Shown: in pieces, positions 5,116-33,328 of the stretch
How the letters are laid out: the number at the start of each line of letters is the position of its first letter
How positions within the stretch are numbered: position 1 is the stretch's first letter
IMG/VR virus record: IMGVR_UViG_3300020564_000003
Strand: one strand, 5' to 3'
Source: an uncultured virus (IMG/VR IMGVR_UViG_3300020564_000003)
Taxonomy: Duplodnaviria > Heunggongvirae > Uroviricota > Caudoviricetes
DNA length: 33,328 nucleotides
Translations under genes and position numbers: made by a program
The notes under the pieces: model-generated
Database searches by the model: none
What the model saw: the letters and a program-made list of their open reading frames with translations, nothing else
Told to the model about the DNA's origin: nothing

Positions 5116-5116
5116 C

Positions 5117-13558: not shown

Positions 13559-13577
13559 TACGCTCTAAACTAAGGCT

Positions 13578-14510: not shown

Positions 14511-14513
14511 ACC

Positions 14514-18798: not shown

Positions 18799-18801
18799 GA
18801 A

Positions 18802-18827
18802 AAGCCCCCCAGTTATTTGGGGGGCTT
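18802..18827. terminator. Bidirectional intrinsic terminator at the convergence of the two arms
   Basis: AAGCCCCCCA-GTTATT-TGGGGGGCTT flanked by A- and T-rich tracts. Confidence 0.85.
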
Positions 18828-18833
18828 CTTCTT

Positions 18834-19223: not shown

Positions 19224-19242
19224 AAGTACAAGGATAAAGAAA

Positions 19243-19264
19243 AAGCCCTGATTTCTCAGGGCTT
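19243..19264 (-). terminator. Intrinsic terminator
   Basis: Minus strand AAGCCCTGA-GAAA-TCAGGGCTT followed by T-tract. Confidence 0.8.
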
Positions 19265-19268
19265 ATTC

Positions 19269-19427
19269 TTACTTACTTAAAATCCGTTTGGCTTCATTAG
19301 CCTTAATGCTCATAAATCCAGTCTTTCTTGGATTCATACTTCCAGGCTTCTTATAACCTTCGCCTTTAGGCATATTTGCAATTCTGGTTGCTAATGCTGC
19401 TGCAACCTTGTCGTGATGCTTTGCCAT
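19269..19427 (-). CDS. 52-aa basic protein (absent from the ORF track)
   Basis: MAKHHDKVAAALATRIANMPKGEGYKKPGSMNPRKTGFMSIKANEAKRILSK; SD AGGGGG, TACACT -10, own terminator. Confidence 0.7.
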   Translation of the reverse strand: MAKHHDKVAAALATRIANMPKGEGYKKPGSMNPRKTGFMSIKANEAKRILSK

Positions 19428-19470
19428 TTACTACCCCCTTTCCTTCTCTGAGTGTAACACAAAAAGAAAA

Positions 19471-19490
19471 CCCCCTCATTTCTGAGGGGG
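19471..19490 (-). terminator. Intrinsic terminator
   Basis: Minus strand CCCCCTCA-GAAA-TGAGGGGG followed by TTTTCTTTTT. Confidence 0.8.
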
Positions 19491-19551
19491 CTTCCATTAT
19501 GCGCCTGCTTTTGCTATGGCTTTTGCTTTTTGCTTTGGCTACGACTTATGC

Positions 19552-20076
19552 TTAAGAAGGGAACTTCTTTAACCAACGCTTTACAACGTCAGTCTCTGTT
19601 CCTTTCCACGCGCTCCAGTCTTTACCTCCACCGCTCATAAAATAAGCGATTTGGGCATTTACCACAGGGTTGAACAGTTCAGCATTTGAAGCCAAATTGA
19701 ACTTATCCCTTCTTGCATCTCCCAATGAACCAATCATATTGATTTGGAATAGACCGTAGGAGTTGTCTCCTGTCTTACGATTACCGTTGTGAGATAGAGG
19801 GCTACCGTGTGATTCTTTCATCGCAATAGCCCACGCTTCTTTAAGGTCTTGACCTTTGAAGCCTACGGCTTGCAGTAACTCAACTAACTGAGGGTCAGTT
19901 AAATCATCTGCATTGACATACTTGGAAAGTACATCTTCTTGCGTTTCTTGCTCTACTGCTTGTGCTTCGGCTTTTTCTGGACTAAGGGCTGGTGGTAAAA
20001 CCACCATTCCTAAAGCCAAAAACATCGCTGTAAACAACGACCCAAACACAATCTTTCCTTTTGTTGTTAGTTTCAT
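19552..20076 (-). CDS. Secreted/membrane-anchored lytic transglycosylase (SLT/Rpf-like)
   Basis: N-terminal hydrophobic signal, catalytic AMKES, YGLFQIN, NPVVNA..A, WSAW; SD GGAG. Confidence 0.85.
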   Translation of the reverse strand: MKLTTKGKIVFGSLFTAMFLALGMVVLPPALSPEKAEAQAVEQETQEDVLSKYVNADDLTDPQLVELLQAVGFKGQDLKEAWAIAMKESHGSPLSHNGNRKTGDNSYGLFQINMIGSLGDARRDKFNLASNAELFNPVVNAQIAYFMSGGGKDWSAWKGTETDVVKRWLKKFPS

Positions 20077-20078
20077 AA

Positions 20079-21446
20079 TCACTCCAAATAGTCATTCACA
20101 ACCTCGGCTGCGTTTGACTGCTGGTGGCGGATACGATGCAGGTATCTCTCCGTAGTTACGATTGACTGGTGACCTAACCGCTCTTTGACCTCGTGCACAT
20201 CTACCCCGTTCTTTAACAACTGGGTAGCGTTAGCGTGCCGTAGGTCGTGAGTGGTTGGATACCAACCAATCCCTGACTTGTTGATGGCTTCGTTCCAAAT
20301 GGCTCGCCACTTGTCACGAGGTAGGTGTCCGTCGCTTTTGCTAAGGCTTTTGCTATGGCTTTTGCTAAGGCTTTCGCTTTTGCTATGGCTTTTGCTATGG
20401 CTTTCGCTTTTGCTAAGGCTTTCTACCTTGCCCTTTCCCTTGTCCTTTCTATAGTGATTGCGGTACTCCCTGACCGCTTCCTTACATACCTGACACCTAC
20501 AACCGCCCACATTGTACGAATACGCTGTTGCGTGTTGGAATGTCCTGCTTCCAATGGTGTAAGGCTTCCCTACTACGCTTGTGGTAGGGCTTTCTATTTT
20601 ACTCCTCTTCTCAACCAGGTGCTTTGAGAAGAGCAGGTCTTCTTTTGCTAAGGCTTTTGCCTTTACAAACTTCTTTATCTCTGCTACTAGAGCTGAGCTC
20701 AGAACAACAGTTCGTTTGTTGCCGTTTTTTGTTGCTGGAACAACAAGAAATCTTGTCCCCTCGGACTTTGTCCCTGCGGGCTGGTATGCGTAGCCAACAT
20801 CTGAAACTGTGCGCCTGACATAGACTTCTTTGGATTGGAAGTTAAAGTCTTTGACTCTGAGTTCTGTGGCTTCCCCATAACGGCAGCCAGAGGCTATGAG
20901 AAACTGGGCTAAAAGAACGCTTCCGTCTGTGGGTAAGTTCTTTAAGATAGCCTGAAAGTCTTTAGGCTCTAGGGTGTAGGTGGGGTCAGGCTTGGGCGTG
21001 CTTAGTCTTATGCGGTGGGTTGGGTTTGTGGCTATTGCGTCATCATCAACGGCGAGCCTGAATAAAGAACCTAAAGAAGTCTTTAGGTGTGAGAGTGTGC
21101 TTGGGCTAACCCCTTTGCTTGCGAGGTTATCCAACAATGCCTTAATGTCTTTCTTGGTAATTGCGGAGATGCGCTTAGAACCTAAAGAAGGTTGGGCATA
21201 CTTCTTTAGCAGGGTGATGTAGTTCTTACGGGTGATTACTCTGATGTCGGGTGAAAGTGCTAATTGCTCTAAGTAAGTGTTGAATGTCTTTTGGTTTTCG
21301 GGCATTAGATTAAACTCGCCTTCTTCGGCAAGTAATCCAGCGTTAAGTGCTTTAGCCCTAGATGAGTAAGTGCCTACGGATTTGACTTTTCCGTCTTGGC
21401 GGTAATAGGCGGTAAATCGCCCTTTGCGTTTGATTGCGTAAGCCAT
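20079..21446 (-). CDS. int: Tyrosine recombinase/integrase with inserted Zn-finger and repeat
   Basis: SGCRYGE (R), TKNG (K), HDLRH, LGH, TERY (Y); SAM-like N-domain; TAGGGT -10 lies 6 nt before ATG. Confidence 0.92.
   Translation of the reverse strand: MAYAIKRKGRFTAYYRQDGKVKSVGTYSSRAKALNAGLLAEEGEFNLMPENQKTFNTYLEQLALSPDIRVITRKNYITLLKKYAQPSLGSKRISAITKKDIKALLDNLASKGVSPSTLSHLKTSLGSLFRLAVDDDAIATNPTHRIRLSTPKPDPTYTLEPKDFQAILKNLPTDGSVLLAQFLIASGCRYGEATELRVKDFNFQSKEVYVRRTVSDVGYAYQPAGTKSEGTRFLVVPATKNGNKRTVVLSSALVAEIKKFVKAKALAKEDLLFSKHLVEKRSKIESPTTSVVGKPYTIGSRTFQHATAYSYNVGGCRCQVCKEAVREYRNHYRKDKGKGKVESLSKSESHSKSHSKSESLSKSHSKSLSKSDGHLPRDKWRAIWNEAINKSGIGWYPTTHDLRHANATQLLKNGVDVHEVKERLGHQSIVTTERYLHRIRHQQSNAAEVVNDYLE
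20334..20423. repeat. Tandem array of GCTTTTGCTAWG (x6) and GCTTTC (x3) inside the integrase
   Basis: Read directly; encodes ES/LSKS/HSKS repeats. Confidence 0.95.
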
Positions 21447-21483
21447 AAGGACACCCTACCAGCGAGTAACTTATGGCGCAAAA

Positions 21484-21523
21484 AAAGGGGGATAGGTTGC
21501 CAGTTGGCAATCTATCCCCCTTT
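21484..21523 (-). terminator. Long-stem intrinsic terminator between the HNH gene and the integrase
   Basis: AAAGGGGGATAGGTTGCCA/TGGCAATCTATCCCCCTTT; T-tract on the minus strand. Confidence 0.85.
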
Positions 21524-21526
21524 AGT

Positions 21527-22120
21527 TTATTTTCTTTTTGTATCTTCTTTTGCGAGCCTGTGTATCCAAGTGTTGCGTTCAGCGTGTGTTTTCTTGCGGT
21601 GGTGATTGGAACATAACACTACACACTTAGCAAGTTCCTTCTTTAGCAAGTTCATACTTACACCTTTGGCTATTCCGTTGCTAATGTCAAACTTCTTTGA
21701 GTGTATGTGGTCAAACTCCAACATCTCTACATCAGTTTCACCGCATACTTTACAAGGGTGTTTCTTCTTGTAGTTATAGACGAACAACCTTATCTCTTGG
21801 TTCTTAGTTAAATGATTGTTCTTTTGTCTTTCACTTACACAAGGCTTACATACTCCGCTTCGTGTTGCTTGGCGGTTTTGTCTTTTAGCAAGTTGGAAAG
21901 AAGATAAGGCTTTCTTCTTACCGCACTTGCTACATTGTCTTTTGCCTTGTGACTCCAACGCTAATCGTTTTGCCGTTCTATCAGCAGAACCTTTGCGTTG
22001 AATTGCTTGGCACGACTTACACCTTGCTCGTCTGCCGTATGAACCTTGCGGAAACTTGTTAAACCTTGCTAGTGGTAGTGCCTCGTAACAACCAATACAG
22101 GTCTTAGTTCTTTGTGCTAT
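21527..22120 (-). CDS. HNH endonuclease with N-terminal Zn-finger repeats (probable ATA start)
   Basis: CKVCGE...LEFDH...KCVVLCSNHH; frame extends upstream of TTG 21958 through CIGC...CKSC. Confidence 0.8.
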   Translation of the reverse strand: MAQRTKTCIGCYEALPLARFNKFPQGSYGRRARCKSCQAIQRKGSADRTAKRLALESQGKRQCSKCGKKKALSSFQLAKRQNRQATRSGVCKPCVSERQKNNHLTKNQEIRLFVYNYKKKHPCKVCGETDVEMLEFDHIHSKKFDISNGIAKGVSMNLLKKELAKCVVLCSNHHRKKTHAERNTWIHRLAKEDTKRK

Positions 22121-22295
22121 TTGTTTTGTCCCTTCGGGCTTGGCTTGTTAAGTGCCACTTACCGCAGATTTCGCATTTGTAAGTAGCACAAGGTTTCTTT
22201 CTATTGTTATTTAGCCAATGATTTTTCCAAATCAAAGACATAGCCTTTTCTGCTTTGTATTTAGTTGGGTAAGCAGTTTTCTCTTGGCACTTCAT
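22104..22295 (-). CDS. Small phage Zn-finger protein
   Basis: C..K.AY.T...A...YKCEICGKWHLTS; ATGA coupling. Confidence 0.75.
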   Translation of the reverse strand: MKCQEKTAYPTKYKAEKAMSLIWKNHWLNNNRKKPCATYKCEICGKWHLTSQARRDKTNSTKN

Positions 22296-22456
22296 ACCCC
22301 AGTTACTTTTCTTACGCAGTTGTAACAGAACCACATCACAACTTCTTTAGCACCCATAATGTCTTTGCCATTTGCTCGGACACCTTGTTGGTTACAGTTA
22401 TCGCAGACCCATAGTTCATCTGCTTCTGTAATCTTACGAACGAATAGTGTTCCCAT
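22292..22456 (-). CDS. 54-aa Zn-ribbon protein (absent from the ORF track)
   Basis: MGTLFVRKITEADELWVCDNCNQQG...MWFCYNCVRKVTGV; SD AAGGAG, coupled at both ends. Confidence 0.7.
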   Translation of the reverse strand: MGTLFVRKITEADELWVCDNCNQQGVRANGKDIMGAKEVVMWFCYNCVRKVTGV

Positions 22457-22608
22457 TACTTCTTTCTCCTTTCATCTCTTAGTGCTACTTGAAGGATACG
22501 AACCTTCTTTTGTAACTGAATGTTCTCTTTCCAAAACAATCCCATTACTGAGAGAGAGCCAACGAGAGCGATAATCATTCCTATCATTGTTCCTGTGTCT
22601 AGTACCAT
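22456..22608 (-). CDS. 50-aa membrane protein (absent from the ORF track)
   Basis: MVLDTGTMIGMIIALVGSLSVMGLFWKENIQLQKK...; SD AAGGGA; TAATG coupling. Confidence 0.7.
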   Translation of the reverse strand: MVLDTGTMIGMIIALVGSLSVMGLFWKENIQLQKKVRILQVALRDERRKK

Positions 22609-22611
22609 TTT

Positions 22612-22800
22612 TTATTCCCTTTCTGTAACTTCGGATACAACCTTCAACACATAAGTTTTATCGTTGAGGTCTTGGTCTATCATCTGTGTCTTTGCTTTAC
22701 CCACAATAACTTCCCACAAGTTGTTAGCGGTGTGTTCGTCATTGTCTATCGTTACCGCAATCGCGGTAGTTAGTTCTACTTTGTACGACTTAATTGCCAT
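22612..22800 (-). CDS. Hypothetical protein
   Basis: ATG 22800 follows the upstream stop with SD GAAGGG. Confidence 0.6.
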   Translation of the reverse strand: MAIKSYKVELTTAIAVTIDNDEHTANNLWEVIVGKAKTQMIDQDLNDKTYVLKVVSEVTERE

Positions 22801-22807
22801 TCTTCTT

Positions 22808-23029
22808 TTACCCTTCCCATAGTGTTTCATCATCATAAACAAAACCACTTTCAACCTCAATACATCTTTCGCACCAAGTTTTAGTTTTGTATTGTCTTTT
22901 ATCTTTTGCTATCCAACCAGAGCCACTTCTTACGAACCAACTCCATTTGTTGTTGTCTATCTTCTTTATCCGAAACAGGTCGTCTTTTGTTTGATAGACA
23001 CCACTAGAAACCTGATACATCTTTAACAT
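22808..23029 (-). CDS. Hypothetical protein
   Basis: SD AAGGAG before ATG 23029. Confidence 0.65.
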   Translation of the reverse strand: MLKMYQVSSGVYQTKDDLFRIKKIDNNKWSWFVRSGSGWIAKDKRQYKTKTWCERCIEVESGFVYDDETLWEG

Positions 23030-23621
23030 TTGTTTCTCCTTCCCATAAAGAAACTTCTTGTTCATCATCTTTTGCTAAACAATCTTCGCAAAGGTTCGGT
23101 GTTTTATCTCCGTAGCACTCCACTTGGTCATAACACTCAGCGCAGTAGTGGTGACTACCCATTAAGTATTCAAGTCTTTCGCAACCTGCGCTACTTGTAT
23201 CACCGCTTTCGTCACTAATAAGTTCTCCTTTTTTATACGATTGTTCGCCCCAGTAGTCGCTACCAGTTTCATAGAAAGTATAAGTAAAAGAAAGTTTCTT
23301 AAACTCTTTTGCGAGTGCTTCAACCACAGGTACAACAGGTGACCAAGCACTCTCAAAAGAATAAACAATTACTTTGTCTTCTACTGACCCATCAAAGCGA
23401 ACCTCATTCAAGTCCCACTTGCTTCCCCAGTTAGCGACATTCCATTCGTACCAATTTGCTTCTTGGTCAATAGGTCTTGGGATAACTCTGTGGCAAGAGA
23501 AGATTGACTCAGAATGAGTTTCTGTTGCTTCTGACTTAGTAATCTCAACTTTCTTTATTAGTTTAGAAAGTTCTTTAGGACTACCTTCTATTGTTAATTC
23601 GTTACTACACCAGTTCGGCAT
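23004..23621 (-). CDS. DUF1281/YubB ferredoxin-like family protein with C-terminal Zn finger
   Basis: MPNWCSN.L.I.G, WYEWN..NWGSKWD, F.SAWSP; CAEC...CEDC. Confidence 0.8.
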   Translation of the reverse strand: MPNWCSNELTIEGSPKELSKLIKKVEITKSEATETHSESIFSCHRVIPRPIDQEANWYEWNVANWGSKWDLNEVRFDGSVEDKVIVYSFESAWSPVVPVVEALAKEFKKLSFTYTFYETGSDYWGEQSYKKGELISDESGDTSSAGCERLEYLMGSHHYCAECYDQVECYGDKTPNLCEDCLAKDDEQEVSLWEGETNVKDVSGF

Positions 23622-24261
23622 TTCCTTCTCCTTCTATCTTTCGGTTAGTTAGTTTTCTGTATGAACGCGAAGTTCCGTTGCTTGTTGTGTATCCGTAACG
23701 CACTAAACGAAACGCCAGCGCACTATGAGTAACCCCAAGTTCTTTTGCTATGCGATAACCCGATACGCCACTCTCCATTAGTTCATAGATAAGTCGTGTA
23801 TAAAGTTCTGCTTCTTCACGATTAGATTTACCTTTGCCTCTAACCATAAACGCTTTAGGTTGAAGTTCTTTTAGTTGCGCTATCACCTGTGGGTCAGGCT
23901 TTACACGCTTTACTCTTTCAACAAAGAGTTCTATTACAGGCGGTGTAACAATAGGTAAGTGCTTCACCTTTGCTAATAATTCACCAGTAGGTTCTTTTAG
24001 TCCGTAAAGACGAACGGACTCTCTTGTTATGTGTAGTGGTGTTGCCAAAGATTGAAGTGTCCAACCTGCTTTGCGTAACTCAAACACATACGCTCTGCGT
24101 TCATCTAGTGGCAAGCCAATAAGAATGTCTGAAACTTCTTTTGGCAAAGTTAAATCTGATTTAGGCACTCTAGTACCAACCAAGATTTGTTCTTTCTCTT
24201 GTTTCATTCCTTTAGTTAGTCGCTTAGATTTTGTCCCTGCGGAATTAGTTTCTAGGTTCAA
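23605..24261 (-). CDS. Double helix-turn-helix DNA-binding protein
   Basis: GWTLQSLATPLHITRESVR and GVSGYRIAKELGVTHSALAFRL; TTG start with SD AAGGAG. Confidence 0.7.
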   Translation of the reverse strand: MNLETNSAGTKSKRLTKGMKQEKEQILVGTRVPKSDLTLPKEVSDILIGLPLDERRAYVFELRKAGWTLQSLATPLHITRESVRLYGLKEPTGELLAKVKHLPIVTPPVIELFVERVKRVKPDPQVIAQLKELQPKAFMVRGKGKSNREEAELYTRLIYELMESGVSGYRIAKELGVTHSALAFRLVRYGYTTSNGTSRSYRKLTNRKIEGEGNAELV

Positions 24262-24682
24262 CGCATACTCCTTTGTTAGTCATTGTTGTTAGTCGTTCTT
24301 GTAGTTTCACTACTTGTTCAGCAAACGCTTCCCTTGCGTAGTTGTGATAGTGGTCAGGGATTTGGTCAATTACTAATTGACTTAGGTTGTGAAAGGTGTC
24401 TGTTCTGTATCGCAAACCTTTATCTTTCCTAAAGCCACGAACCTCTATTGAATAAAGATTGACCCAATCGTGTTCGGGGCGAGCATAGTTTTGATAACAG
24501 ATTTTCTCTAATCTAAACTTCTTTATCACACCTGTTGATTGGTAACTTCCGTTTCTCCATTCTGTTTCTTCAATGTCAATGATTATCTGCTCACTATCTT
24601 TTAGTGTCACATAACAATAAAAAGAAAGATTGCCACTTACATTTATACTTGTTTCTTTTTGTATCTCTAGTTGTGTTGTCAT
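24245..24682 (-). CDS. Hypothetical protein
   Basis: 145-aa ORF, SD AAGGA. Confidence 0.7.
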   Translation of the reverse strand: MTTQLEIQKETSINVSGNLSFYCYVTLKDSEQIIIDIEETEWRNGSYQSTGVIKKFRLEKICYQNYARPEHDWVNLYSIEVRGFRKDKGLRYRTDTFHNLSQLVIDQIPDHYHNYAREAFAEQVVKLQERLTTMTNKGVCVEPRN

Positions 24683-24686
24683 TTAT

Positions 24687-25013
24687 TTATTCCTTATCCC
24701 ATAGGTCTGTATCTTCTTTTGCTTCAACAACTTTGTTGATTATGTGTTCGTACTTGGTTCTTGTTTCATCTCTTAGTTCATCATTGAACCTATCCCATAC
24801 ATAGTCAGCACTATCAACGCTAGACATAACATCATCAAGAAACTCATTGTTAATAAGTTCTTTATTTAGTTCAATAGGGTTGCCGTCACTATCTGTGTAG
24901 TCGGTATCTTGAATGATGTCTATTAACTCATTCTTATCAACCCAAATTGCCCAAATCTTATCGTCTTGGTTAAGCGCAGAGAGAATGTGGATAATTTCTT
25001 TTACTGTTCTCAT
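24687..25013 (-). CDS. Acidic hypothetical protein
   Basis: ATG 25013 after the upstream stop. Confidence 0.7.
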   Translation of the reverse strand: MRTVKEIIHILSALNQDDKIWAIWVDKNELIDIIQDTDYTDSDGNPIELNKELINNEFLDDVMSSVDSADYVWDRFNDELRDETRTKYEHIINKVVEAKEDTDLWDKE

Positions 25014-25018
25014 TGTTC

Positions 25019-25330
25019 CTATTCCGTATCCCATAGTTGTTCTTCCGTTGTACCTGCTAAATAAGTTTCCATAAAGTCAGCAATAAATAATTCTGTTGCT
25101 TCATTTGTTGAGTTCATTTTGTTTTCTAATACACCACGAATACTTGCGCCTAACATTTGGTCGTGTGCTTGAACACTAAAGTTTTTGGCAACATAGTCCC
25201 ACTCGTTATCAGTTAGTAATCGTTCTTCCGTATCTAACGCCTTGAAACATTCTTTATCCCATAGCGCAACAACTAACTGTGTATCAGGTTCATACTTCTT
25301 TAGTAGTTCTTTTAATTCAGATACTTTCAT
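25019..25330 (-). CDS. Acidic hypothetical protein
   Basis: MKVSELKELLKKY N-terminus; SD AAGGA. Confidence 0.7.
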   Translation of the reverse strand: MKVSELKELLKKYEPDTQLVVALWDKECFKALDTEERLLTDNEWDYVAKNFSVQAHDQMLGASIRGVLENKMNSTNEATELFIADFMETYLAGTTEEQLWDTE

Positions 25331-25344
25331 TTCCCATTCCTTTC

Positions 25345-26052
25345 TTAGTGATACTTCTTGGCACAAATCGGTCCGATACCACCAGCAACAGATTTCAATA
25401 CTGTTAATGTCTTGCCACAATGAACACAGATACCAACTTGTGCCGAATACTTAATAGCAAGTTCTAGTGTTAAGCGGTCTGTTGTATCTAACTTGTAGAG
25501 AACACCAAACTCCTTATCGTTGCGTACATACCTCTTAGCAACATCAGAGTAAGTCCAAACACTCCAACGCTTTGTTTCAGAGTTCTGTCGGATTGAATAA
25601 ACAACTCCGTCAAGTATGTAAGCACCAACCTCTGTAATCTTCATTGGCGGTGTAACTTCTTTAGCAAACTTTAGTGCGTTGATAATCTCAGACACATCTT
25701 TGCGGTCTAGTTCTTCTAAAGAAGATACTTTGCGATTGTGTAGATAGTGATTGAGAGTTTCAGTACCGCCCTCTTTCTTTTTGATTAGTGAGTTCGCAAA
25801 AGAAAGTTGCTTTTCACTAGCAGAGTTAATGACTCCTGCTTTGTTAGGTAGCGCAAGTAACTTAGTGATTAGTTCTCCAGCACCTTGAACATTGAGTGTT
25901 GTGACATCTACATCTACAAAAGAATGTGCTTTTGTTTCTAGTAATGTCTTTATGAATTGTTGTTGTCTATCACTTGCGTATCGCACTTGGTACTCTCCGT
26001 ATCCATTTGCGCCTCTTGAACCGCCTGTGCGGTGTGTAGATAGTGTTGTCAT
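25345..26052 (-). CDS. DUF6011-type Zn-finger protein with two ASxxQ repeats
   Basis: C-terminal CVHCGKTLT...S...GIGPICA; ASDRQ/ASEKQ modules. Confidence 0.75.
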   Translation of the reverse strand: MTTLSTHRTGGSRGANGYGEYQVRYASDRQQQFIKTLLETKAHSFVDVDVTTLNVQGAGELITKLLALPNKAGVINSASEKQLSFANSLIKKKEGGTETLNHYLHNRKVSSLEELDRKDVSEIINALKFAKEVTPPMKITEVGAYILDGVVYSIRQNSETKRWSVWTYSDVAKRYVRNDKEFGVLYKLDTTDRLTLELAIKYSAQVGICVHCGKTLTVLKSVAGGIGPICAKKYH

Positions 26053-26450
26053 TCTTCGTTCTCCTTATCTTCTTTTGTCCCCTCGGACTCTTGTAGTAGT
26101 CGGTCTTGTTCATCTTGTTGTTGTGATTGCCAGTTAATTACTTCTAGTGTAATTTCTTTTTTGATTGCTCTTACTTCTTTAGCAGTTACTTGAACACACT
26201 TAACTACTTCATACAATTCTGCTTTTGCTTGGTTGTTCCAAGTTTTACAATACTTCTTGGCGTTGTGTTCTGTCGCAGAGAAAGATGAGTTGATACAACC
26301 CCACTCATTTAGTTCTTTTGTTAGAACACAATAGAAGTAATCTTTGTATGCGCTACCGCGTATCACTCTGTACCCCTTGCTATTGGTAGCAACAAAATAC
26401 TTTCGTGGTGTCTTTACATAACCTGTTCGTTCTAATAGTTCTTGACCCAT
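26049..26450 (-). CDS. Hypothetical protein
   Basis: 133-aa ORF, SD GGAG. Confidence 0.7.
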   Translation of the reverse strand: MGQELLERTGYVKTPRKYFVATNSKGYRVIRGSAYKDYFYCVLTKELNEWGCINSSFSATEHNAKKYCKTWNNQAKAELYEVVKCVQVTAKEVRAIKKEITLEVINWQSQQQDEQDRLLQESEGTKEDKENEE

Positions 26451-26451
26451 T

Positions 26452-26595
26452 TCATTCTCCGTTCTTTAGTTTTGCTTGAATGTCACTTACTTTGTGGGCA
26501 GACTCTTTGTGACCTTGTGCGTTTAAGTATTCTTTCTCCTTACCTAACGCTTCTAGTATTACTGCGAGTTCTGTATTTGTTATCTCTAGTTTCAT
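26452..26595 (-). CDS. 47-aa protein (absent from the ORF track)
   Basis: MKLEITNTELAVILEALGKEKEYLNAQGHKESAHKVSDIQAKLKNGE; TAATG coupling, fills the gap exactly. Confidence 0.65.
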   Translation of the reverse strand: MKLEITNTELAVILEALGKEKEYLNAQGHKESAHKVSDIQAKLKNGE

Positions 26596-27176
26596 TAGTA
26601 GTTTTCCTTTCCAGCGAACGCCATTTCAACTAACAACTCAAACTCTTTGAGCGATAGATTTACCTGTGCTTTGTAATCTGTTCCGTAACCGCTTGTAGTT
26701 ACTTCAACAGTTGTCTGTTCTCCTAATAGTTCTTTAGAAGTAGCAACAACAGAGTTGCGAGAGCGTTCTACTTCTTCTTCAACCTGTCGGCGTAGTTCTC
26801 GCTCTTTGCGTTGCGCTTCTTCACGCAATAGTCTTTCTGCTTCTTCTTTAGACTTCGCAGAGTTCCACTTAGGTTCAAGTACCGACCACTCGGCAACAAC
26901 ATCTGCTAGGCGTGAAGTCCAGTAATACTCTTTGCCATTGTTATCTACTGCTTTAACAACAATGCCAACAGAACGATTGCCTTGTTCTGCTTTCTTGAAA
27001 GAAGGTGAGTCTTTGCGATTGCTTGGTTCGTACTCGTACTTATCAAGTGAGTAAATAGTTGCTTTAACAACATCATTCTCACGCACTTGGTCTATGTCAC
27101 GACTTGCCTTTGAGTTGTATGTCCAAGAAGGAACGATTGCGTACTCGCCATTTAATTTGATTTCAGATAGTTTCAT
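26595..27176 (-). CDS. Hypothetical protein with coiled-coil segment
   Basis: 193-aa ORF, SD GGAG. Confidence 0.75.
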   Translation of the reverse strand: MKLSEIKLNGEYAIVPSWTYNSKASRDIDQVRENDVVKATIYSLDKYEYEPSNRKDSPSFKKAEQGNRSVGIVVKAVDNNGKEYYWTSRLADVVAEWSVLEPKWNSAKSKEEAERLLREEAQRKERELRRQVEEEVERSRNSVVATSKELLGEQTTVEVTTSGYGTDYKAQVNLSLKEFELLVEMAFAGKENY

Positions 27177-27205
27177 TTGTATTACTCCGTTTCGTATTTG
27201 TTATT

Positions 27206-27230
27206 GGGGGCAACCGATTTGATTGCCCCC
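27206..27230 (-). other. 10-bp intergenic stem-loop without U-tract
   Basis: Minus strand GGGGGCAATC-AAATC-GGTTGCCCCC. Confidence 0.65.
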
Positions 27231-27244
27231 ATTGTGTAACTTCT

Positions 27245-29233
27245 TTAAGCATTAACTAGATTGCGTGCGATTGCCATACGCACTAACTCTTTGCCAAGTG
27301 TGAGAATGTCTTTTGCGCTTTGTATTGAAGTCATTAACTCAAAACTATGGCGGTAGTTATCTAAGTCTTCTGCGGTGTGTTGGTAGTGCGAGATAAGTGC
27401 CTGACAAGTAAGAACACCTGCGTTCTTCATCTCACTTACTGCTTTCTCGCCTTCATCTGTATTCCACGCGCCGTCAGTAATCATAAACAAAACCTTTATT
27501 GCTTTATCACTTTCAGCGAGAACACGCTTCGCATAAAGTAATCCGCTTTCAGGATTTGTTCCGCCGTCAGCACCAGCGTCACGAATTGTTGTACCTGCTT
27601 TTTCATCAGCACCATAAAGAAGATTGGTGCGACTATCAAAAGTAACAACAGTTGTTCGTGCTTCTACTCGTTCAAGTGCCTTCTTGATTGCCCACATAGA
27701 CTTGTAAGCGTTGTCAGCATTACGACCACTCATTGACCCACTTCGGTCTAAAAGAATAACCGCTTCAATACTTACAACATCATCACGACCCTCACTCCAT
27801 TCATCAAACACAGTATCTAATTCGTCACCGCGTAAGTAACGACCTGCGTTTAACTTTCCTGAACGCTCACCATTTAACCAAGCAGGGTCATACTCTGCTT
27901 GTAAGCGTTCAAGTTCAACACCAAACTTCTTTGCGAGCAAAGTAAGTTCGTCAGGAATACGCACTTCGTTGTATTGCGCTTTGTCAGGTGTCTTAGCGTT
28001 GCCACCAACAAGTTCTGTATCAACACCGAGTTGCTTTGCTATGTCGTTGATACCTTTACTAACTTCTTTAACAACATCAGAAAGAATGTCGCTAAGTAAA
28101 TCAGTTACTTGCTTGTTGCTACCTGTTCTACCTGCTTCTTTGCCGATACCCTTGCCACCTTCTTTTGGTGTTGTTGGTTCAACATCAACATCATCAAAAT
28201 CATCAAAGTCAAAATCAAAATCATCATCAAAAGAATTATCTTTTGGTTGTGATTGTGATTGTGATTGTGATTGTGATTGTGATTGTGATTGTGGTTGTGA
28301 TTGTGAATTAGTGTCTGCGGATTTTGTCCCCTCGGACACATCTTCTTTTGGTGTTGTATCTATAACTACTTCAACAACATTCTTTTGTGCGTTCTTCTTA
28401 GCACGCTCTTGTTCTTCTTTAGTCGCAGGGCGTACAGAAGAAGACTCATAGCCTTGTGTTGGTCTGCCTTCGTGTCCGTTAGGGTTCTTGATACGGATAG
28501 TAATTGTTGTGCCTTCACCTTCACCGCTTTGTGGTGATTGTGGAAGGGCAGGTAACTCACTAAGTAGTTCAGCAAACTTCTTAATAAGATTGAAACCAAC
28601 TTCAACATTCTCATTACCAACAAAAGTTAGTGAGATGTATTGGTCAATAACATCTGCGAGTTCTTGTTGTAGTTCAGGCTTTATGAAGTTGTCACTTGCT
28701 AGTTGTCGCAACTCAACAGGTAAATACTTGCGACCATACACAAGTGGGAACGCACGACTAATTGCTTGTTCATCAGCAAGTAAGTAATCGCACATAGTTG
28801 CGACAAGCCACGCTTTTGTAGAAGGCAACCAACCAGTTAGAAGTAACTCAATGCGTGAGTCTTCTAAACAATTAAAGGCTTCCCACAATTCGTTCTGTTG
28901 TTGTTCATCTTTAATAAGTTGAACAAGGCGTGAGCCGTTGCGTGGAGTAAATCGCAAGTGTGCTAATTCGTGGAACGCGAGTCCGTTGTAACTAGCGATT
29001 GCGTTCGGTGTGAAGTCATCTTTGATGTGAGCAACATTCAACCAAACTTCTTTTGTTGATGAATACGCAGGTGCGCCAATGTCTTTTCTATCAACAACAT
29101 TCACACTAATTTTGTGAGTTGTTAATACTGAAAGTGTTTTGCTAAAGACACTTGCTAACGCACCAACACGCTTGCGCTTTAGTGCTTCTTTCTTTTCTGC
29201 TTCTGCTTGTTGTTCTATAAAGAAGGTACTCAT
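27245..29233 (-). CDS. CobT-like VWA-domain protein with HExxH N-terminal domain
   Basis: FHELAH, N.LED.RIE, acidic linker, MIDAS DRSGSM, GGT, ITDG. Confidence 0.88.
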   Translation of the reverse strand: MSTFFIEQQAEAEKKEALKRKRVGALASVFSKTLSVLTTHKISVNVVDRKDIGAPAYSSTKEVWLNVAHIKDDFTPNAIASYNGLAFHELAHLRFTPRNGSRLVQLIKDEQQQNELWEAFNCLEDSRIELLLTGWLPSTKAWLVATMCDYLLADEQAISRAFPLVYGRKYLPVELRQLASDNFIKPELQQELADVIDQYISLTFVGNENVEVGFNLIKKFAELLSELPALPQSPQSGEGEGTTITIRIKNPNGHEGRPTQGYESSSVRPATKEEQERAKKNAQKNVVEVVIDTTPKEDVSEGTKSADTNSQSQPQSQSQSQSQSQSQSQPKDNSFDDDFDFDFDDFDDVDVEPTTPKEGGKGIGKEAGRTGSNKQVTDLLSDILSDVVKEVSKGINDIAKQLGVDTELVGGNAKTPDKAQYNEVRIPDELTLLAKKFGVELERLQAEYDPAWLNGERSGKLNAGRYLRGDELDTVFDEWSEGRDDVVSIEAVILLDRSGSMSGRNADNAYKSMWAIKKALERVEARTTVVTFDSRTNLLYGADEKAGTTIRDAGADGGTNPESGLLYAKRVLAESDKAIKVLFMITDGAWNTDEGEKAVSEMKNAGVLTCQALISHYQHTAEDLDNYRHSFELMTSIQSAKDILTLGKELVRMAIARNLVNA
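28247..28306. repeat. (TTGTGA)x10 hexamer microsatellite encoding an (SQ)n linker
   Basis: Nine perfect units and one TTGTGG. Confidence 0.95.
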
Positions 29234-30588
29234 TACTCACTCACCTTTCCGATAAGTTCTAGTTCCAAGTTGTGTCGTTGAGAGTCCAAAAGAAGTTTCA
29301 CACTAGAGCGTTCATCTTCTCTGAAGTTATTAACAAAGTTATCAACCGCAAAGTCATAACTTAGGTTCTGTGCTAAATCAACAAACTGCTTTAGCAAACG
29401 AGTTGATACAGGGGTTTCATAAACACCTGCGATTGTGTCGGCACGCATTGACTTCGCAAGTTCCAACAAAGTGTTAGAAGGAATAAACTTCTTTTCAATG
29501 TCGGTGTCGTACTCAAAGTTCAACTTAATCCAAAAGCGGTCAGCGAACGCTTCGTTAAACTTAGAAGTACCTTTGTAGCCGTCGTTGTAACACATAGCGA
29601 TAAGTAAGTTTTCATTCGCCGTAATTACTTCGCCGTCGTGTTCTAGCAAAGTTAAAACTCTGCGGTCGTCAAGCACTCCGTGAAGAACGCTTGCGATTTT
29701 TTGTGGAAGAAAGTTCGCTTCGTCAATTACTAACACGCCACCATTACGAAAGAAGTGTGTAAATAATCCGTCACGCCATACCAACTTACCTTCTTCATTT
29801 GGAACATAGCGACCAAAGAATTGTGAAGGCTCTACACCTGCGTTACAACTCATTGAACCAAACTCCAAACCATTCTTTGCGGAGAATGTCATTAAAGAAG
29901 TTGTCTTACCTGTACCTGCGTGACCTTGAATAGATACATTCTTCTTTGACTTCAATGCGTATGTATAAAGTTGGTCTTCACTTAATCCACCAGCAAACTT
30001 GCGTGGCACATAAGTTCTTACCGCTTCACTTGTTAAAGAAGGTACGAACGCAAGTGTGCGTTCGTTGTCGTTGCGTTCTACTTTGTTAATCACTATCGCT
30101 TCGTTAGCGATTGGATTTATTGTGTTGCGTACTGTCACAGGCTTTGTCCCCTCGGTCTTAGTTGTTGCGTGCTTATCGCTTCTGCCGTCAGAGCGATACT
30201 TACTTAGTAGTGTTGGGTCTTGTTCAATTAGTAACTGAACCTCATCAACAACACTTTGGATAGTGCGTGTTGTATCTATTGTTAGATTGCGTAAGCGATA
30301 CTGCTTTGTGAGTTTCTGTATTAGAACATTTGGTATCTCGTTGTTGTTAAGTGCTACTACATCAACGCTTGTCAATGGTGTTGATAACACTTCACCAATT
30401 AAGTTGTAATCAAGTGTGCCGATTGAGTTGTGTTCATCTAACTCTCGCGCACTCCAAGAATTACTTTCGCCACGACCACCATTTGTAACTCTCATAAAGG
30501 TATGAGTGTTGCCGTTATGACTTGCGATAATTACTTGCTTTGTAGTTGTTGGATTAACTTGCCCTGAGATTAGAATTGCGTATGTCAT
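29233..30588 (-). CDS. MoxR/CobS-like AAA+ ATPase
   Basis: Walker A GHAGTGKT, Walker B LVIDEAN, N.GY.G...NEAFADRF, STR; coupled to the VWA gene. Confidence 0.9.
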   Translation of the reverse strand: MTYAILISGQVNPTTTKQVIIASHNGNTHTFMRVTNGGRGESNSWSARELDEHNSIGTLDYNLIGEVLSTPLTSVDVVALNNNEIPNVLIQKLTKQYRLRNLTIDTTRTIQSVVDEVQLLIEQDPTLLSKYRSDGRSDKHATTKTEGTKPVTVRNTINPIANEAIVINKVERNDNERTLAFVPSLTSEAVRTYVPRKFAGGLSEDQLYTYALKSKKNVSIQGHAGTGKTTSLMTFSAKNGLEFGSMSCNAGVEPSQFFGRYVPNEEGKLVWRDGLFTHFFRNGGVLVIDEANFLPQKIASVLHGVLDDRRVLTLLEHDGEVITANENLLIAMCYNDGYKGTSKFNEAFADRFWIKLNFEYDTDIEKKFIPSNTLLELAKSMRADTIAGVYETPVSTRLLKQFVDLAQNLSYDFAVDNFVNNFREDERSSVKLLLDSQRHNLELELIGKVSE

Positions 30589-30612
30589 TTGGTTTTCCGT
30601 TTCTATTAGTTG

Positions 30613-30873
30613 TTAGTTGTTTATGTCGGTGTCTAGTTGGAACATCTCGTATAGCGATTTAACTTCATCAAACTTCTCACTAGCAGAACCGCACACATTG
30701 TCGGCTAGTAAAAGAAGTTTCTTTCTATCTACAATCTCACTTAGTAGTTGTAACCCTGCCGATAACACATCTTCTTTATCGTGTTCAGGATTTAAGAATT
30801 GAATTGCGATTAGCATTGAAGTAATTAGTTGTTCGTTGCTTGGGTGATTATCTTTAGTGATTTTTATTCGCAT
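30613..30873 (-). CDS. Hypothetical protein
   Basis: SD AAGGAG; 86 aa. Confidence 0.7.
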   Translation of the reverse strand: MRIKITKDNHPSNEQLITSMLIAIQFLNPEHDKEDVLSAGLQLLSEIVDRKKLLLLADNVCGSASEKFDEVKSLYEMFQLDTDINN

Positions 30874-31008
30874 TTATTTATTCTCCTTATCTAAACAAGT
30901 TGGACAAAAGAACACATACTTTCCAAGACGAGAACCCTTGTAGAAGTAAGGATTTAATTTACATACATCACACTTAGCGTTGATTGTTGCCATAGTTTCT
31001 TTCGCCAT
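30874..31008 (-). CDS. 44-aa Zn-ribbon protein (absent from the ORF track)
   Basis: MAKETMATINAKCDVCKLNPYFYKGSRLGKYVFFCPTCLDKENK; SD AAGGAG. Confidence 0.7.
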   Translation of the reverse strand: MAKETMATINAKCDVCKLNPYFYKGSRLGKYVFFCPTCLDKENK

Positions 31009-31122
31009 TTATTTATTCTCCTTTTTATTCAGTAACGATACGAGTTGGAAGTAAGAAGTAACATCTTCATCAAAAAGAATTGTCACGCCTTGTTCATCTA
31101 TTGTTGCGGTAGGTACTGACAT
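31009..31122 (-). CDS. 37-aa protein (absent from the ORF track)
   Basis: MSVPTATIDEQGVTILFDEDVTSYFQLVSLLNKKENK; SD AAGGA, abuts both neighbours. Confidence 0.65.
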   Translation of the reverse strand: MSVPTATIDEQGVTILFDEDVTSYFQLVSLLNKKENK

Positions 31123-31299
31123 TTATTTATTCCTTTCGTAGTAGAAGTCGCACATAAGCGCACTAGCGTCTATTGACCATTCACAACTATCAGTATCAAC
31201 AACTGCGTGATAGTTGTAAAAGAAGTTAATAACTACTGTAATAAATACACCGAAGATAAAACCAACAACTAAGTGACCGCGTTTATTTAAGTGTTTCAA
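31123..31299 (-). CDS. 58-aa membrane protein (absent from the ORF track)
   Basis: TTG start overlapping the upstream TGA, SD GGAG; TM segment LVVGFIFGVFITVVINFFY. Confidence 0.65.
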   Translation of the reverse strand: MKHLNKRGHLVVGFIFGVFITVVINFFYNYHAVVDTDSCEWSIDASALMCDFYYERNK

Positions 31300-31688
31300 T
31301 TTGTGATTACTCCAGTTCCGTTTAGTAGGTGAGTGATAACTGTTTCGTAGTGATTAACAAGTGAGTTGTAATCGTTGCGTGCGTTCGCACATTCAATGTC
31401 AAAAGAAGATTGAGAGAAACGATTAGCAGGTGTAGTGCGAATTGTTTTTGCGAACAAGTCACCGAAGATAGAACCGATTGACTTCTCAACAACAAAGTTG
31501 TTATCCAACTTCTCAAAAGAAACAACAGAAACATAAGTGCGATACACCTTGCGTTCTTTGTCGTGAATAGTTGTAACATTCACGCGAAACTTATCGTTGT
31601 ATGTAATCGTCATTTTGTTTTTGCGTGGTGTATGAGTGATTAGTGAAGTGTCGGTGATTACTGGTGCGATAGTTGTTGTTGTTGTCAT
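31296..31688 (-). CDS. Hypothetical protein, first gene of the leftward arm
   Basis: 130-aa ORF; leader nearly identical to that of the AAA gene. Confidence 0.7.
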   Translation of the reverse strand: MTTTTTIAPVITDTSLITHTPRKNKMTITYNDKFRVNVTTIHDKERKVYRTYVSVVSFEKLDNNFVVEKSIGSIFGDLFAKTIRTTPANRFSQSSFDIECANARNDYNSLVNHYETVITHLLNGTGVITN

Positions 31689-32956
31689 TTGTTATTCCGT
31701 TTCTATTAGTTGTTGTTTTGTATTTGTTATTAGTGAAGTGCGCAAGTGTTAATCGCACACCGCTATTCACTAACTGTTAATAACAATTAGTGAATAGCAG
31801 AATGTAATTAAAACATTTACAAGATAGAAACAATGTCACTCAGTAATAACCATTTGAGTTTGTCGCGGTAGCGTAGTTATTACATCATTCAATTTATAGT
31901 TTCTAGTTTATTTATCGTTCGCACACTAATTAGTGTTGTGTTATGCGTTAGCGTTTTTTATACACATACGATAGATAAATAATTTTCGTTAGCGAACAAC
32001 CAAAAGAAGTTATGTAATTTATTTTGTTTTACTAAATAACGAACACAATTCGTTGCGTACAAAATAAAAAAACAAAACTAACTTTTGTTTTTTCGCTAAC
32101 CGCCTGTCCCGCGAGGGAGAGCAACTTGCTGGCGCAAGCGTATAACGGATTGGGTCAAAGGCGCAAGTACCGCCCAAACTGAGCGTGAATTGAGCGTGAG
32201 TTCGTGTCGGAATAGGGGTTGCTGTCCGAGGATTGAACAGAGAGCAACCGCGCACCAAAAGAAGAACGCCAAAGTTATTTAGTGTTATTTATTTTCAGTA
32301 ATAACAAAAGAATAAATAAAAGAATAATAATTATCGTAGCGTGTATTCCAGTAACAACTGTCAAGTAATAAAAGAATAAACAAAAGAAGATTAGTAATAG
32401 TTATTTATTGTTAGTTGTTTCTTTAACTAATTGTTAGCAGATTACAAGTGCTAATAACTATTGCGAATGAGTGGGGGTTGAAGGGGGCGTAGCCCCCTTA
32501 TACAAAAGAACAATGAGTAGTAATAAATACATAAGAGAATAAGTAATAGATAGATACAACAATGAGTGTGATGAATGAATGTATTTACATAACTATTGAA
32601 TACATAACTTGTAATAACAATGTAAATAGTTAGTGATACACAATGTATTTAGTAAGTGATTAAGTACCTGATAACAACTTGTAAAGTTGGTGTTTAGTCT
32701 GGTGGTATCCGCACAAAGATTGCGATAAAAATAAGCAGTAGCCAATAGTTATTTTCACTTGCTATCAAAACTGCTATCAAACTATTTAATTACATTAGTT
32801 TTGTGCGGAGATAGAACAATAAATACTTCTTTAAGAAACAAGTTGTGAATGTAATCGTGATAAATAAAAATCTTTTGGTACAAAAGACCCCCACAGTTAA
32901 GCGTGTTTTACGCAGGGAACCCCCAGGGCTCAGACGCGGTTGAGGGGTACAGAGTG
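31689..32956. other. 1.27-kb AT-rich non-coding region between divergent units
   Basis: No credible ORF; several palindromes, hairpins and short direct repeats. Confidence 0.7.
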
Positions 32957-32980
32957 AGGCAGTAGCCGTAATATTGGCCT
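32957..32980 (+). promoter_or_regulatory. Putative leaderless promoter AGGCAGTAGCC-N-TANTAT, copy 1
   Basis: TAATAT lies 6 nt before ATG 32981, no SD; repeated at 33307. Confidence 0.6.
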
Positions 32981-33283
32981 ATGGCTAAGGAATATGCGCT
33001 AAATGGCTTTGCAGGCCTAGTGCACCAGCGTAAGAACCCACACTCTGGCACAAAAGTCAGTGTCTATCACTCCGAGCAAGCTGGTATGGACTCCAGTGAT
33101 GGAACCAAGTATTCGGCTGTATGTGAAGACCACGGCATGATTATGGGGGTCTCATCTATCTCCGCTGCTAAATCAGCTGCAATTGACTCCCCATCGTGGT
33201 GTGATGACTGTCGTGACGCAGAAACAGCTAAATTAAAAGGGCCAAGTAACCTCTCTGCAGAACAGTTTACCTCCCATACCTAA
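32981..33283 (+). CDS. Hypothetical protein with C..H / C..C motifs
   Basis: AVCEDHG...WCDDC; 100 aa. Confidence 0.75.
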   Translation: MAKEYALNGFAGLVHQRKNPHSGTKVSVYHSEQAGMDSSDGTKYSAVCEDHGMIMGVSSISAAKSAAIDSPSWCDDCRDAETAKLKGPSNLSAEQFTSHT

Positions 33284-33306
33284 TATTTTTTTATCCAGTA
33301 ACGACT

Positions 33307-33328
33307 AGGCAGTAGCCTTACTATTAGC
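33307..33328 (+). promoter_or_regulatory. Putative leaderless promoter, copy 2
   Basis: AGGCAGTAGCCTTACTATTAGC, 19/22 identical to 32957-32978. Confidence 0.55.

Follow-up and report, generated by a model that had tools for sequence, protein, structure and literature searches.

In phage T7, a short terminal repeat is followed by a leader and by early genes that read inward to a terminator, and an anti-restriction gene is already expressed when the remaining DNA enters the cell. For T5-like phages, restriction is reported to act only through recognition sites in the first-entering DNA, with an unidentified pre-early function shielding the remainder (PMC10644984; 10.1101/866236), and the same dependence on the leading region is reported for Autographiviridae (PMC12455610). 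The first-entering leading region of conjugative plasmids is reported to carry anti-defense functions (10.1101/2023.02.15.528439). Genome-wide avoidance is also reported in phages, as under-representation of recognition words relative to a composition or codon null (PMC6286503). Here, we describe a 12-kb arm from which short palindromes have been purged, located in a 33,328-nucleotide (nt) stretch of DNA (the window) from an uncultured Caudoviricetes virus (IMG/VR IMGVR_UViG_3300020564_000003). The purge is site specific and independent of codon usage, is confined to one block whose position is conserved in a family of related phages, and was made by point substitutions.

The arm shares features with each of these systems and differs from all of them. 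Like phages with genome-wide avoidance, the window avoids GATC, CCGG, and TCGA throughout (0 copies in 33,328 nt); unlike them, it carries an extra purge that stays within a single block of 12 kb, has a border just a few nucleotides across, and covers six more tetramers, almost every hexameric palindrome, and several asymmetric sites. As in T5 and BF23, an early-gene block of about 10 kb would lie at one genome end (PMC10644984; 10.1101/866236). However, the T5 block is a 10.2-kb terminal repeat, whereas the arm is single copy by depth; the two-step transfer known for T5 is proposed here from sequence; and the T5 block retains all 16 four-base palindromes and has 130 six-base palindromes versus 130 expected from the adjacent 40 kb. 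The precedent of T5 and T7 that a preliminary description of the window invoked, site depletion in first-entering DNA, is thus less solid than that description suggested: the first-step-transfer DNA of T5 is not generally depleted of palindromes. Like the T7 early region, the arm has a leader and co-oriented, presumably early genes that end at a terminator after about 13 to 19% of the genome, with the repeat of the arm being a predicted one. Conjugative plasmids differ in that their transfer is single stranded and does not involve phage DNA. No description of an arm-limited, multisite purge was found in open-access full texts and bioRxiv, subscription journals lying outside this coverage. The vulnerability of first-entering DNA was known, having been shown one site at a time in a few model phages, and the multisite purge of one arm appears to be new. 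Its scale exceeds that in T5, and it spans a family of abundant uncultured lake phages in which each lineage has its own list of purged sites.

Palindromic words in the arm

TGCA, AGCT, CATG, GGCC, and ATAT had been described as missing between about 20701 and 32968, and direct counts bore this out. The numbers of copies to the left of, inside, and to the right of 20701-32968 were 121, 0, and 4 for TGCA; 56, 0, and 3 for AGCT; 26, 0, and 1 for CATG; 15, 0, and 3 for GGCC; and 38, 0, and 3 for ATAT. A sixth tetramer that had been missed, ACGT, was likewise absent from the interval, with 64 copies to the left. None of the six starts anywhere in 20,697-32,970, where about 166 to 195 occurrences in total would be expected. 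Together with GATC, CCGG, and TCGA, nine 4-mers had a count of zero in this purged compartment (20697..32970, as defined by word counts). All nine are palindromic, and the rarest non-palindromic 4-mer was present in 2 copies. The longest gap free of the six arm-specific tetramers measured 12,275 bp (20,696 to 32,971), and the second longest measured 497 bp.

Maximal-order Markov expectations for the arm were 29.6 for ACGT, 29.8 for AGCT, 42.1 for ATAT, 21.1 for CATG, 10.1 for GGCC, and 50.0 for TGCA (sum, about 183). As a null for coding words, 300 synonymous-codon shuffles were generated that left all encoded proteins, and the codon usage pooled over the arm, unchanged. Mean counts in these shuffles were 35.5, 36.4, 35.5, 14.5, 7.8, and 36.5, respectively; the lowest value for any of the six tetramers was at least 2, and zero was never reached. 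This comparison of observed with expected counts, which the preliminary description had suggested, places the absence far beyond chance under both nulls. In the remainder of the window, ACGT, AGCT, CATG, and GGCC were mildly depleted (observed/expected, about 0.3 to 0.6), and TGCA and ATAT were at expectation. The non-coding DNA of the arm was purged as well as the coding DNA.

Longer palindromes were lost to a similar extent. Within the compartment, 62 of the 64 six-base palindromes were absent, the exceptions being TAATTA (8 copies) and TGCGCA (1 copy), and the coding sequence of the arm contained 4 six-base palindromes in total, whereas the shuffles averaged 131 and never gave fewer than 105. 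Of the 27 six-base palindromes with no purged 4-mer inside them, 25 were at zero; this group had 9 copies in the arm versus 66.8 when scaled from the other 59.9 kb of the phage. Palindromic 4-mer cores that were retained had palindromic flanks in 9 of 228 cases in the arm versus 332 of 1350 elsewhere. Eight-base palindromes numbered 3 in the arm versus 181 in the rest of the genome.

Further words were purged from the arm only. ACSGT (0 versus 26), CASTG (0 versus 17.6), GAWTC (0 versus 15), GTCTC (0 versus 22), and GGATG (0 versus 17) were all absent, and GCNGC, CCNGG, and GGNCC were each reduced to 1 copy, versus 46, 20.5, and 16. GACTG, CGATG, and GGACG also had no copy in the arm. Words composed only of A and T were lost solely in the arm as well, including ATAT (0 versus 33.6), TTTAAA (0 versus 8.2), AAATTT, ATTAAT, and TTATAA. 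The purged words resemble classic type II and type IIS recognition sequences; for some specificities, such as ATAT, no characterized enzyme is known to us.

Words with no relation to restriction were depleted too. AAAAA/TTTTT (18 versus 70), TATA (9 versus 41), and the Shine-Dalgarno-like GGAGG (0 versus 8.7) were scarce in the arm, and the depletion of AAAAA/TTTTT and of the Shine-Dalgarno-like word is probably unrelated to restriction. Such words are what would be expected if a structural or expression constraint, acting against hairpins or spurious promoters and terminators in genes that host polymerase reads, had shaped the arm instead of restriction. As an explanation of the purge, however, a constraint of this kind is very unlikely: four-base palindromes are incapable of forming hairpins, a 40-nt hairpin persists inside the arm, the purged words match classic type II and type IIS sites, and the purged sets differ among close relatives. 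The hairpin is near perfect and occupies 21484-21523, in the gap that separates the HNH gene from the integrase gene. The arm tolerates long inverted repeats, provided that their center is not a short palindrome.

Twenty metagenome runs from lake or freshwater samples, representing 20 studies (2016 to 2024), contained the arm, each with at least 53% of the arm words; 6 of these runs may be the source of the window itself. When contigs from four runs were aligned to positions 13,400-33,328, each border was crossed by single contigs with no differences (left, for example, 16,399-28,275; right, 28,267-33,309), and the sole place where contigs broke was a TTGTGA tandem repeat near 28.25 kb. In a separate sample, the IMG/VR contig L001 (about 98% identical) has the same border and the same absence, except that 4 CATG sites are kept. 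A chimeric assembly, or a sequence that is synthetic or recoded, might have been suspected when a pooled count of the six tetramers made relatives appear unpurged. With the arm in 20 runs, independent contigs identical over both borders, and a purge and border shared with L001, the probability of such an artifact is negligible.

Contig depths over the arm and its two flanks were 101.5, 100.2, and 104.7 in one run (X3) and 17.9, 13.9, and 19.1 in another (X2). These depths bear on whether the arm is a long terminal repeat of the T5 or SPO1 type, present in two copies per virion and carrying pre-early genes. Its length of 12 to 13 kb and its early-looking genes do resemble the repeats reported for T5 (10.2 kb) and BF23 (9.7 kb) (PMC10644984). 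The candidate was nevertheless rejected on the flat contig depth in the two runs. The contigs that bridge both borders, and the repeats of just 221 and 344 bp in two cultured relatives, the phages BRock and LuckySocke, also argue against it, and we regard it as highly improbable.

Purged sets across the phage family

The window is evidently part of a WhiB-encoding myovirus genome of about 97 kb (95 to 100 kb): a 65-kb IMG/VR contig overlaps positions 1-26,215 at 100% identity, and complete relatives measure 94.7 to 100.3 kb. For comparison across the family, 17 related sequences with a homologous block were examined, and each tetramer was counted separately. In 13 of the 17, a homologous arm of 12 to 14 kb lacked sites that are common elsewhere in the same sequence; among these 13, the signal in G019 was weak, and L003 has little flanking DNA for comparison. 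The AAA proteins of the family span 31 to 98% identity.

The purged set differed from lineage to lineage. The window lacks ACGT, AGCT, ATAT, CATG, GGCC, and TGCA in the arm only and GATC, CCGG, and TCGA genome wide, and L001 has the arm-only set of the window minus CATG. ACGT, AGCT, ATAT, and GGCC form the arm-only set of G002, of G005, and, as far as its short flank allows, of L003. Genome-wide absences are CCGG and TCGA in G002 (with GATC at 1 copy) and GATC, TCGA, and CGCG in G005, and the arms of these two genomes keep TGCA (81 to 82 copies) and CATG (19 to 44 copies). The same four tetramers are missing from the arm of L005, together with CATG and CCGG, and from that of L006, which has 1 copy of CATG and 2.5 kb of flank. 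No genome-wide set applies to the four L contigs. In G014, the arm-only set is AGCT, ACGT, CCGG, and GGCC, and the genome-wide set is GATC and TCGA. The corresponding sets are TGCA, ACGT, GTAC, and GGCC versus AGCT and GATC in G008; TGCA, GTAC, ACGT, AGCT, and CATG versus CCGG and GATC in G011; and ACGT, ATAT, and GGCC versus AGCT, CCGG, and GATC in G021. G007 (ACGT and GGCC) and G019 (GGCC) have the smallest arm-only sets, and both lack AGCT, CCGG, CGCG, and GATC genome wide.

When every 4-mer was scanned without preselection in eight related genomes, gaps of 10 to 17 kb were found for palindromes only; the non-palindromic words AAAA, TAAA, and CGAA reached a similar score with gaps of 1 to 4 kb. 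Two further relatives were profiled for palindromic 4-mers only. Six-base palindromes were depleted in every arm, save those built on tolerated cores (such as TTGCAA, TCATGA, and TAATTA).

The loss of sites could be followed in place. The arms of the window and G002 align over 12,638 columns at 87.5% identity. Among 4-mers of G002, 66.8% of the non-palindromic ones are unchanged in the window, compared with 2 of 81 TGCA sites and 0 of 20 CATG sites, and both surviving TGCA sites lie outside the purged stretch. Of 78 lost TGCA sites that were scored, 44 changed synonymously, 21 non-synonymously, and 13 in non-coding DNA, mostly by single-base changes. The loss of sites reflects selection on the DNA word itself. 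If the reading of the arm proposed below holds, the family is a natural experiment on the speed of purging, with TGCA and CATG lost between relatives that are 87 to 98% identical.

The site-by-site loss of TGCA and CATG in a collinear arm also argues against the import of a pre-purged block. Such a mosaic origin, from a lineage that avoids the sites genome wide, would be silent on DNA entry. Several observations are compatible with it. The genome-wide purged sets vary between relatives, and the sequence to the right of the arm is non-homologous between them. One complete relative, G017 (95.7 kb), has no AATT, AGCT, ATAT, CGCG, or GATC anywhere and a single CCGG; ATAT is thus arm-only in the window and avoided genome wide in G017. 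In G007, the tail and structural genes at 31007-47825 contain no TCGA over 16.8 kb, where 23 would be expected, and this segment may be a recombinant from a lineage that avoids TCGA everywhere, which looks like an import of the kind proposed. For the arm itself, import remains quite unlikely. The same homologous arm is purged in 13 of 17 sequences despite the wide divergence of their AAA proteins, each with its own set; ACGT is avoided genome wide in no examined genome; and the 98%-identical L001 still retains its CATG sites. Collectively, these data strongly support restriction avoidance, the cause proposed in the preliminary description: the purged words are of the restriction type only, the sets are lineage specific, the losses occurred one by one and were mostly synonymous, and non-coding DNA was purged too.

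The junction and the proposed order of DNA entry

Sharp boundaries had been described on both sides of the arm, and this was upheld for the right border only. There, relatives align up to ...GGCAGTAGCC at 32,967, next to a conserved motif, and homology then ends completely. The quick return of the tetramers past 32969 was confirmed, with ATAT at 32971, GGCC at 32976, TGCA at 33010, AGCT at 33079, and CATG at 33136; the six tetramers occur 14 times in 358 bp, or 39 per kb. The DNA across the junction from the arm shows no purge at all. The left border, in contrast, is ragged. The last AGCT copies before the arm, at 20691 and 20696, are an isolated island: the segment at 20691-20702, made up of the AGCT at 20691 and the perfect 10-bp palindrome CTGAGCTCAG (20693..20702, within the integrase gene; present in G002 and L003, not in G005), is the sole palindromic island at this margin. 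Throughout the margin (19737..20696), ACGT, AGCT, ATAT, and GGCC are otherwise absent, and their absence continues down to 19586-19736, with far-border positions at 19,586 for ACGT and 19,736 for ATAT. TGCA is absent down to 20,194, with copies at 20137 and 20194. The purge fades 100 to 270 bp short of a strong hairpin that resembles an intrinsic terminator, with 13 pairs and a run of T (19466..19495, minus strand), and that ends the leftward gene block. Across lineages, the far border varies by 1 to 3 kb between sites. On the side of the junction, the site gaps of the other lineages checked all have their borders no more than about 650 nt from the conserved motif, and most have them within tens of nucleotides of it.

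Past the junction, the DNA (32968-33328 in the window, 1-3513 in L001, and 1-7946 in G002) is non-homologous between otherwise collinear relatives. This flank is unusually rich in exactly the tetramers that are missing from the arm.

The conserved junction motif, GGTTGAGGG-N10-AGGCAGTAGCC (32938..32967, plus strand), is present in 33 IMG/VR contigs. Downstream of it come a -10-like TAATAT or TAAAAT and, after 6 to 7 nt, the ATG that opens the first gene on the long, unpurged side. In the window, this gene lies at 32981..33283 (plus strand) with TAATAT 6 nt before its ATG, an arrangement that suggests a leaderless transcript. The last eight bases of the motif form the second copy of CAGTAGCC. 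The upstream copy lies at 32736..32743 (plus strand), giving a pair at 32736-32743 and 32960-32967, and in all 29 family contigs that are long enough, the two copies are separated by 195 to 226 nt. The pair is a candidate packaging or terminus signal.

Evidence on the nature of the junction comes from BRock and LuckySocke, which are Borockvirus-like Streptomyces myophages. The phage of the window resembles both in gene order (packaging, head, tail, replication, PolA, RecA, WhiB, Cas4-like, RuvC, SpoVS, and phrog_887); the capsid protein links the family to both at 61 to 62% identity, and 14 region-A proteins are found in LuckySocke in unchanged order. Like the arm, an opposite-strand block of 11 to 12 kb lies at the end of each genome, and their short terminal repeats are at the equivalent junction. 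In BRock, a 221-bp terminal repeat is reported to have been shown by double coverage (PMC7453282); the record sequence confirms this repeat, and the first 12.1 kb are the equivalent block. In LuckySocke, the two ends of the record are an exact 344-bp repeat, located at the equivalent junction, and the last 10.9 kb are an opposite-strand block that reads inward from the repeat end. CAGTAGCC occupies positions 37-44 of the terminal repeat, 36 nt inside it, in both phages. A short direct terminal repeat is therefore predicted at 32700..32923 of the window, its start being set, by analogy with these two phages, 36 nt before the first CAGTAGCC. In BRock, no second CAGTAGCC was found at the matching offset outside the repeat, the nearest copy with one mismatch being 142 nt off; thus, the reading of the pair as a mark of both repeat borders is backed by LuckySocke only. 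One contig of the window lineage stops at 32,701, 35 nt before the first CAGTAGCC, and contig ends within 400 nt of the motif were found on the arm side in 8 of 33 contigs and on the other side in 0 of 33. These comparisons indicate that the junction at about 32.7 to 32.97 kb is likely a physical DNA end, with a repeat of about 200 to 225 bp that starts near 32,700.

An arm with these properties would be explained by staged delivery. The arm would be the terminal, inward-reading early block of a linear actinophage genome of about 97 kb, purged of the sites of the type II restriction enzymes of the host population. Its end would enter the cell first, and host polymerase would transcribe it from that end toward the terminator at about 19.47 kb, while the remaining 85 kb or so would enter late or conditionally. 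One or more arm products would neutralize most type II restriction before the rest arrived, leaving the rest of the genome free to carry the purged sites; the genome-wide absence of GATC, CCGG, and TCGA would then mark enzymes that escape the shield. Because a purge of one arm would be useless if all of the DNA were exposed together, the rest must arrive later or be protected in some other way. First entry fits the probable DNA end, the sharp start and the ragged finish before the terminator, the inward gene orientation, and the unpurged DNA on the other side. We therefore think it fairly probable, from the sequence comparisons, that the arm is the leading DNA and meets type II restriction at a time when no shield is yet active. 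The preliminary description had also proposed first entry, and the terminus in two syntenic cultured relatives and the shape of the purge lend it indirect support. That this widespread family of lake actinophages combines staged delivery, with a block of 12 to 13 kb surviving on its sequence alone, and a subsequent shield of no known family is a more tentative proposal, which we consider possible.

The rest of the genome could instead be protected chemically. If virion DNA carried a protective base modification everywhere except in the arm, for instance through the product of the gene at 15005-16513, the order of entry would be irrelevant. This gene encodes a 502-amino-acid protein that matches phrog_887, labeled queuine tRNA-ribosyltransferase (DpdA-like), at E = 1e-60. 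It is conserved in G007 and LuckySocke, where it sits beside a gene for a 310-amino-acid uncharacterized protein, and its product could be a DNA-modifying enzyme. A modification that blocks some enzymes but not others would likewise fit the existence of both genome-wide and arm-only sites. However, searches of Pfam, NCBIfam, and PDB sequences gave no match and so do not back the DpdA-like label, and no preQ0-synthesis genes (FolE, QueD, QueE, and QueC) were found among the scanned window proteins or among 110 of the 114 open reading frames of G007. A guanine change cannot protect A/T-only sites, yet all five such words listed above are purged from the arm. Furthermore, no known mechanism would spare one 12-kb block, and LuckySocke has the same gene but no purged block. 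Modification is thus unlikely to account for the purge.

Several points weigh against staged entry of a purged arm. The arm-only purge was not seen in 4 of the 17 relatives (G006, G017, G018, and L007). In the terminal blocks of BRock and LuckySocke, all 16 tetramers are near expected counts, so that terminal position alone does not produce the signature; these blocks also differ from the arm in lacking the AAA_5, VWA, and integrase genes, and the hosts of the two phages are high-GC soil Streptomyces. Seven of the eight contig ends on the arm side are scattered away from the predicted end. The complete records of G006 and G007 are circles with 123-bp end overlaps, which are uninformative on the genome ends because they are assembly overlaps. 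The public runs consist of contigs, in which read starts are not visible, and both the termini and the order of entry are inferred. Unlike in T7, the rest of the genome reads toward the arm and cannot be internalized by transcription, so that transcription alone cannot pull the remainder in and a second step would be needed. Finally, no Ocr, ArdA, or other anti-restriction function could be assigned to any arm protein by Pfam, PHROG, PDB, or model searches. T7 differs in this respect as well, and the proposed shield would need to work against type II enzymes, on which Ocr has no action.

Searches for parts of the T5 machinery were also negative. No A1- or A2-type DNA-transfer protein was annotated among the arm proteins (22 with Pfam and 18 with PHROG), no direct comparison with A1 and A2 having been made. 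At the inner border, no T5-like injection stop signal, which would be a repeat-rich stretch of non-coding DNA with DnaA boxes, was found among the coding DNA, the 10-bp palindrome, two 14-mers, and terminators present there, in a search that did not include DnaA boxes.

If staged entry of the purged arm is correct, a purge with a sharp start and a ragged end would provide a computational marker of the first-entering end, of polarity, and of early regions in uncultured phages, and the list of purged words would read out the restriction repertoire of an uncultured host population. The AAA_5, VWA/HExxH, DUF6011, DUF1281-like, and acidic proteins of the arm would then be candidates for a broad anti-restriction or DNA-entry function.

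Genes of the arm and neighboring features

Positions 1 to 18.7 kb of the window carry plus-strand genes for PolA, RecA, WhiB, a Cas4-like exonuclease, a deoxynucleoside monophosphate kinase, RuvC, SpoVS, the phrog_887 protein, and a ribonucleotide reductase of class II. On the opposite (minus) strand, the arm forms one continuous gene block. In the complete relative G007, all non-arm genes lie on one strand and meet the arm head-on. From the junction, they comprise about 16 kb of small genes, then terminase, portal, capsid, sheath, tube, baseplate, replication genes, PolA, WhiB, and the rest. In this layout, two transcription arms, of 12 to 13 kb and about 85 kb, diverge from one junction.

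The arm begins with an AT-rich non-coding leader of 1.2 kb in all (31.8 to 32.97 kb). The part at 31771..32699 (minus strand), with short direct repeats, has zero copies of all nine purged tetramers. A scan of the leader for sigma-70-like promoters gave 4 matches versus 8.3 by shuffling and no convincing promoter. The leader is followed by small genes, AAA_5, VWA, DUF6011, two acidic paralogues, a helix-turn-helix gene, DUF1281-like, HNH, integrase, and SLT-like genes, in that order. All of those placed here are on the minus strand. The AAA_5 (MoxR/CobS-like) ATPase gene (29233..30588) is the arm marker gene in all relatives. The adjoining gene (27245..29233) encodes a VWA-domain protein with an N-terminal HELAH (HExxH) motif. 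This protein also contains QS and DF repeats, and the TTGTGA tandem repeat within its gene (28241-28318) interrupts contigs in all four runs examined. The C terminus of the DUF6011 protein (25345..26052) matches a gene of the LuckySocke terminal block.

The two paralogous small proteins (24687-25034 and 25019-25420) are strongly acidic, with net charges of -17 and -15; G007 and G014 each have a single copy. As possible DNA mimics, the acidic proteins gave no match or one chance-level match to PDB sequences, no named Atlas cluster, and no fold. The model of the 115-amino-acid protein had a predicted local distance difference test (pLDDT) score of 60, too poor for a structure search. The acidic DUF1281_C (Api92-like) protein (23004..23621) was also considered as an anti-restriction candidate; the only match to its model (pLDDT, 69.5) was Api92, whose function is not known, at E = 0.0095. 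The HNH endonuclease gene lies at 21527..21958. The tyrosine integrase gene (20079..21446), the penultimate gene of the block, contains the left border of the purge, and tandem 12/18-nt repeats at 20320-20445 encode a low-complexity SKSxSHSKS insert before the catalytic C terminus. The final gene ahead of the terminator encodes an SLT lysozyme-like protein (19552..20082).

No tRNA genes or Rfam families were found in the window, and megablast of both window halves against cultured-phage records gave no match. In a search of 185,579 species genomes for hosts or prophages, the AAA protein had no relative, and PolA was 26 to 32% identical to proteins in unrelated metagenome-assembled genomes. The isolated Planktophila phages are reported to have genomes of 39 kb (PMC10202952) and are unrelated.

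The preliminary description had linked an array of 13-mers to a staged-entry and anti-restriction system. This array corresponds to a 14-mer family, TTGTCCCCTCGGAC and its variants, with 7 copies about 2 kb apart, all on the plus strand and in the arm only (20753-20766, 20768-20781, 22126-22139, 24231-24244, 26075-26088, 28324-28337, and 30144-30157). One extra match with 3 mismatches lies outside the arm (8571-8584, plus strand), for a total of 8 versus 1.4 by chance. Syntenic copies are present in the 87%-identical G002, and L003 has the boundary copy. However, TTGTCCCCTCGGAC is absent from G005, G014, G008, G011, and G007, all of which have a purged arm. Since purged arms persist without it, the array is a separate, lineage-specific feature and not a core part of such a system. 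The copies sit inside unrelated genes, where they encode ..SEGTK.., and a Chi-like or pause-site role is conceivable. All of them share one orientation relative to the predicted entering end.

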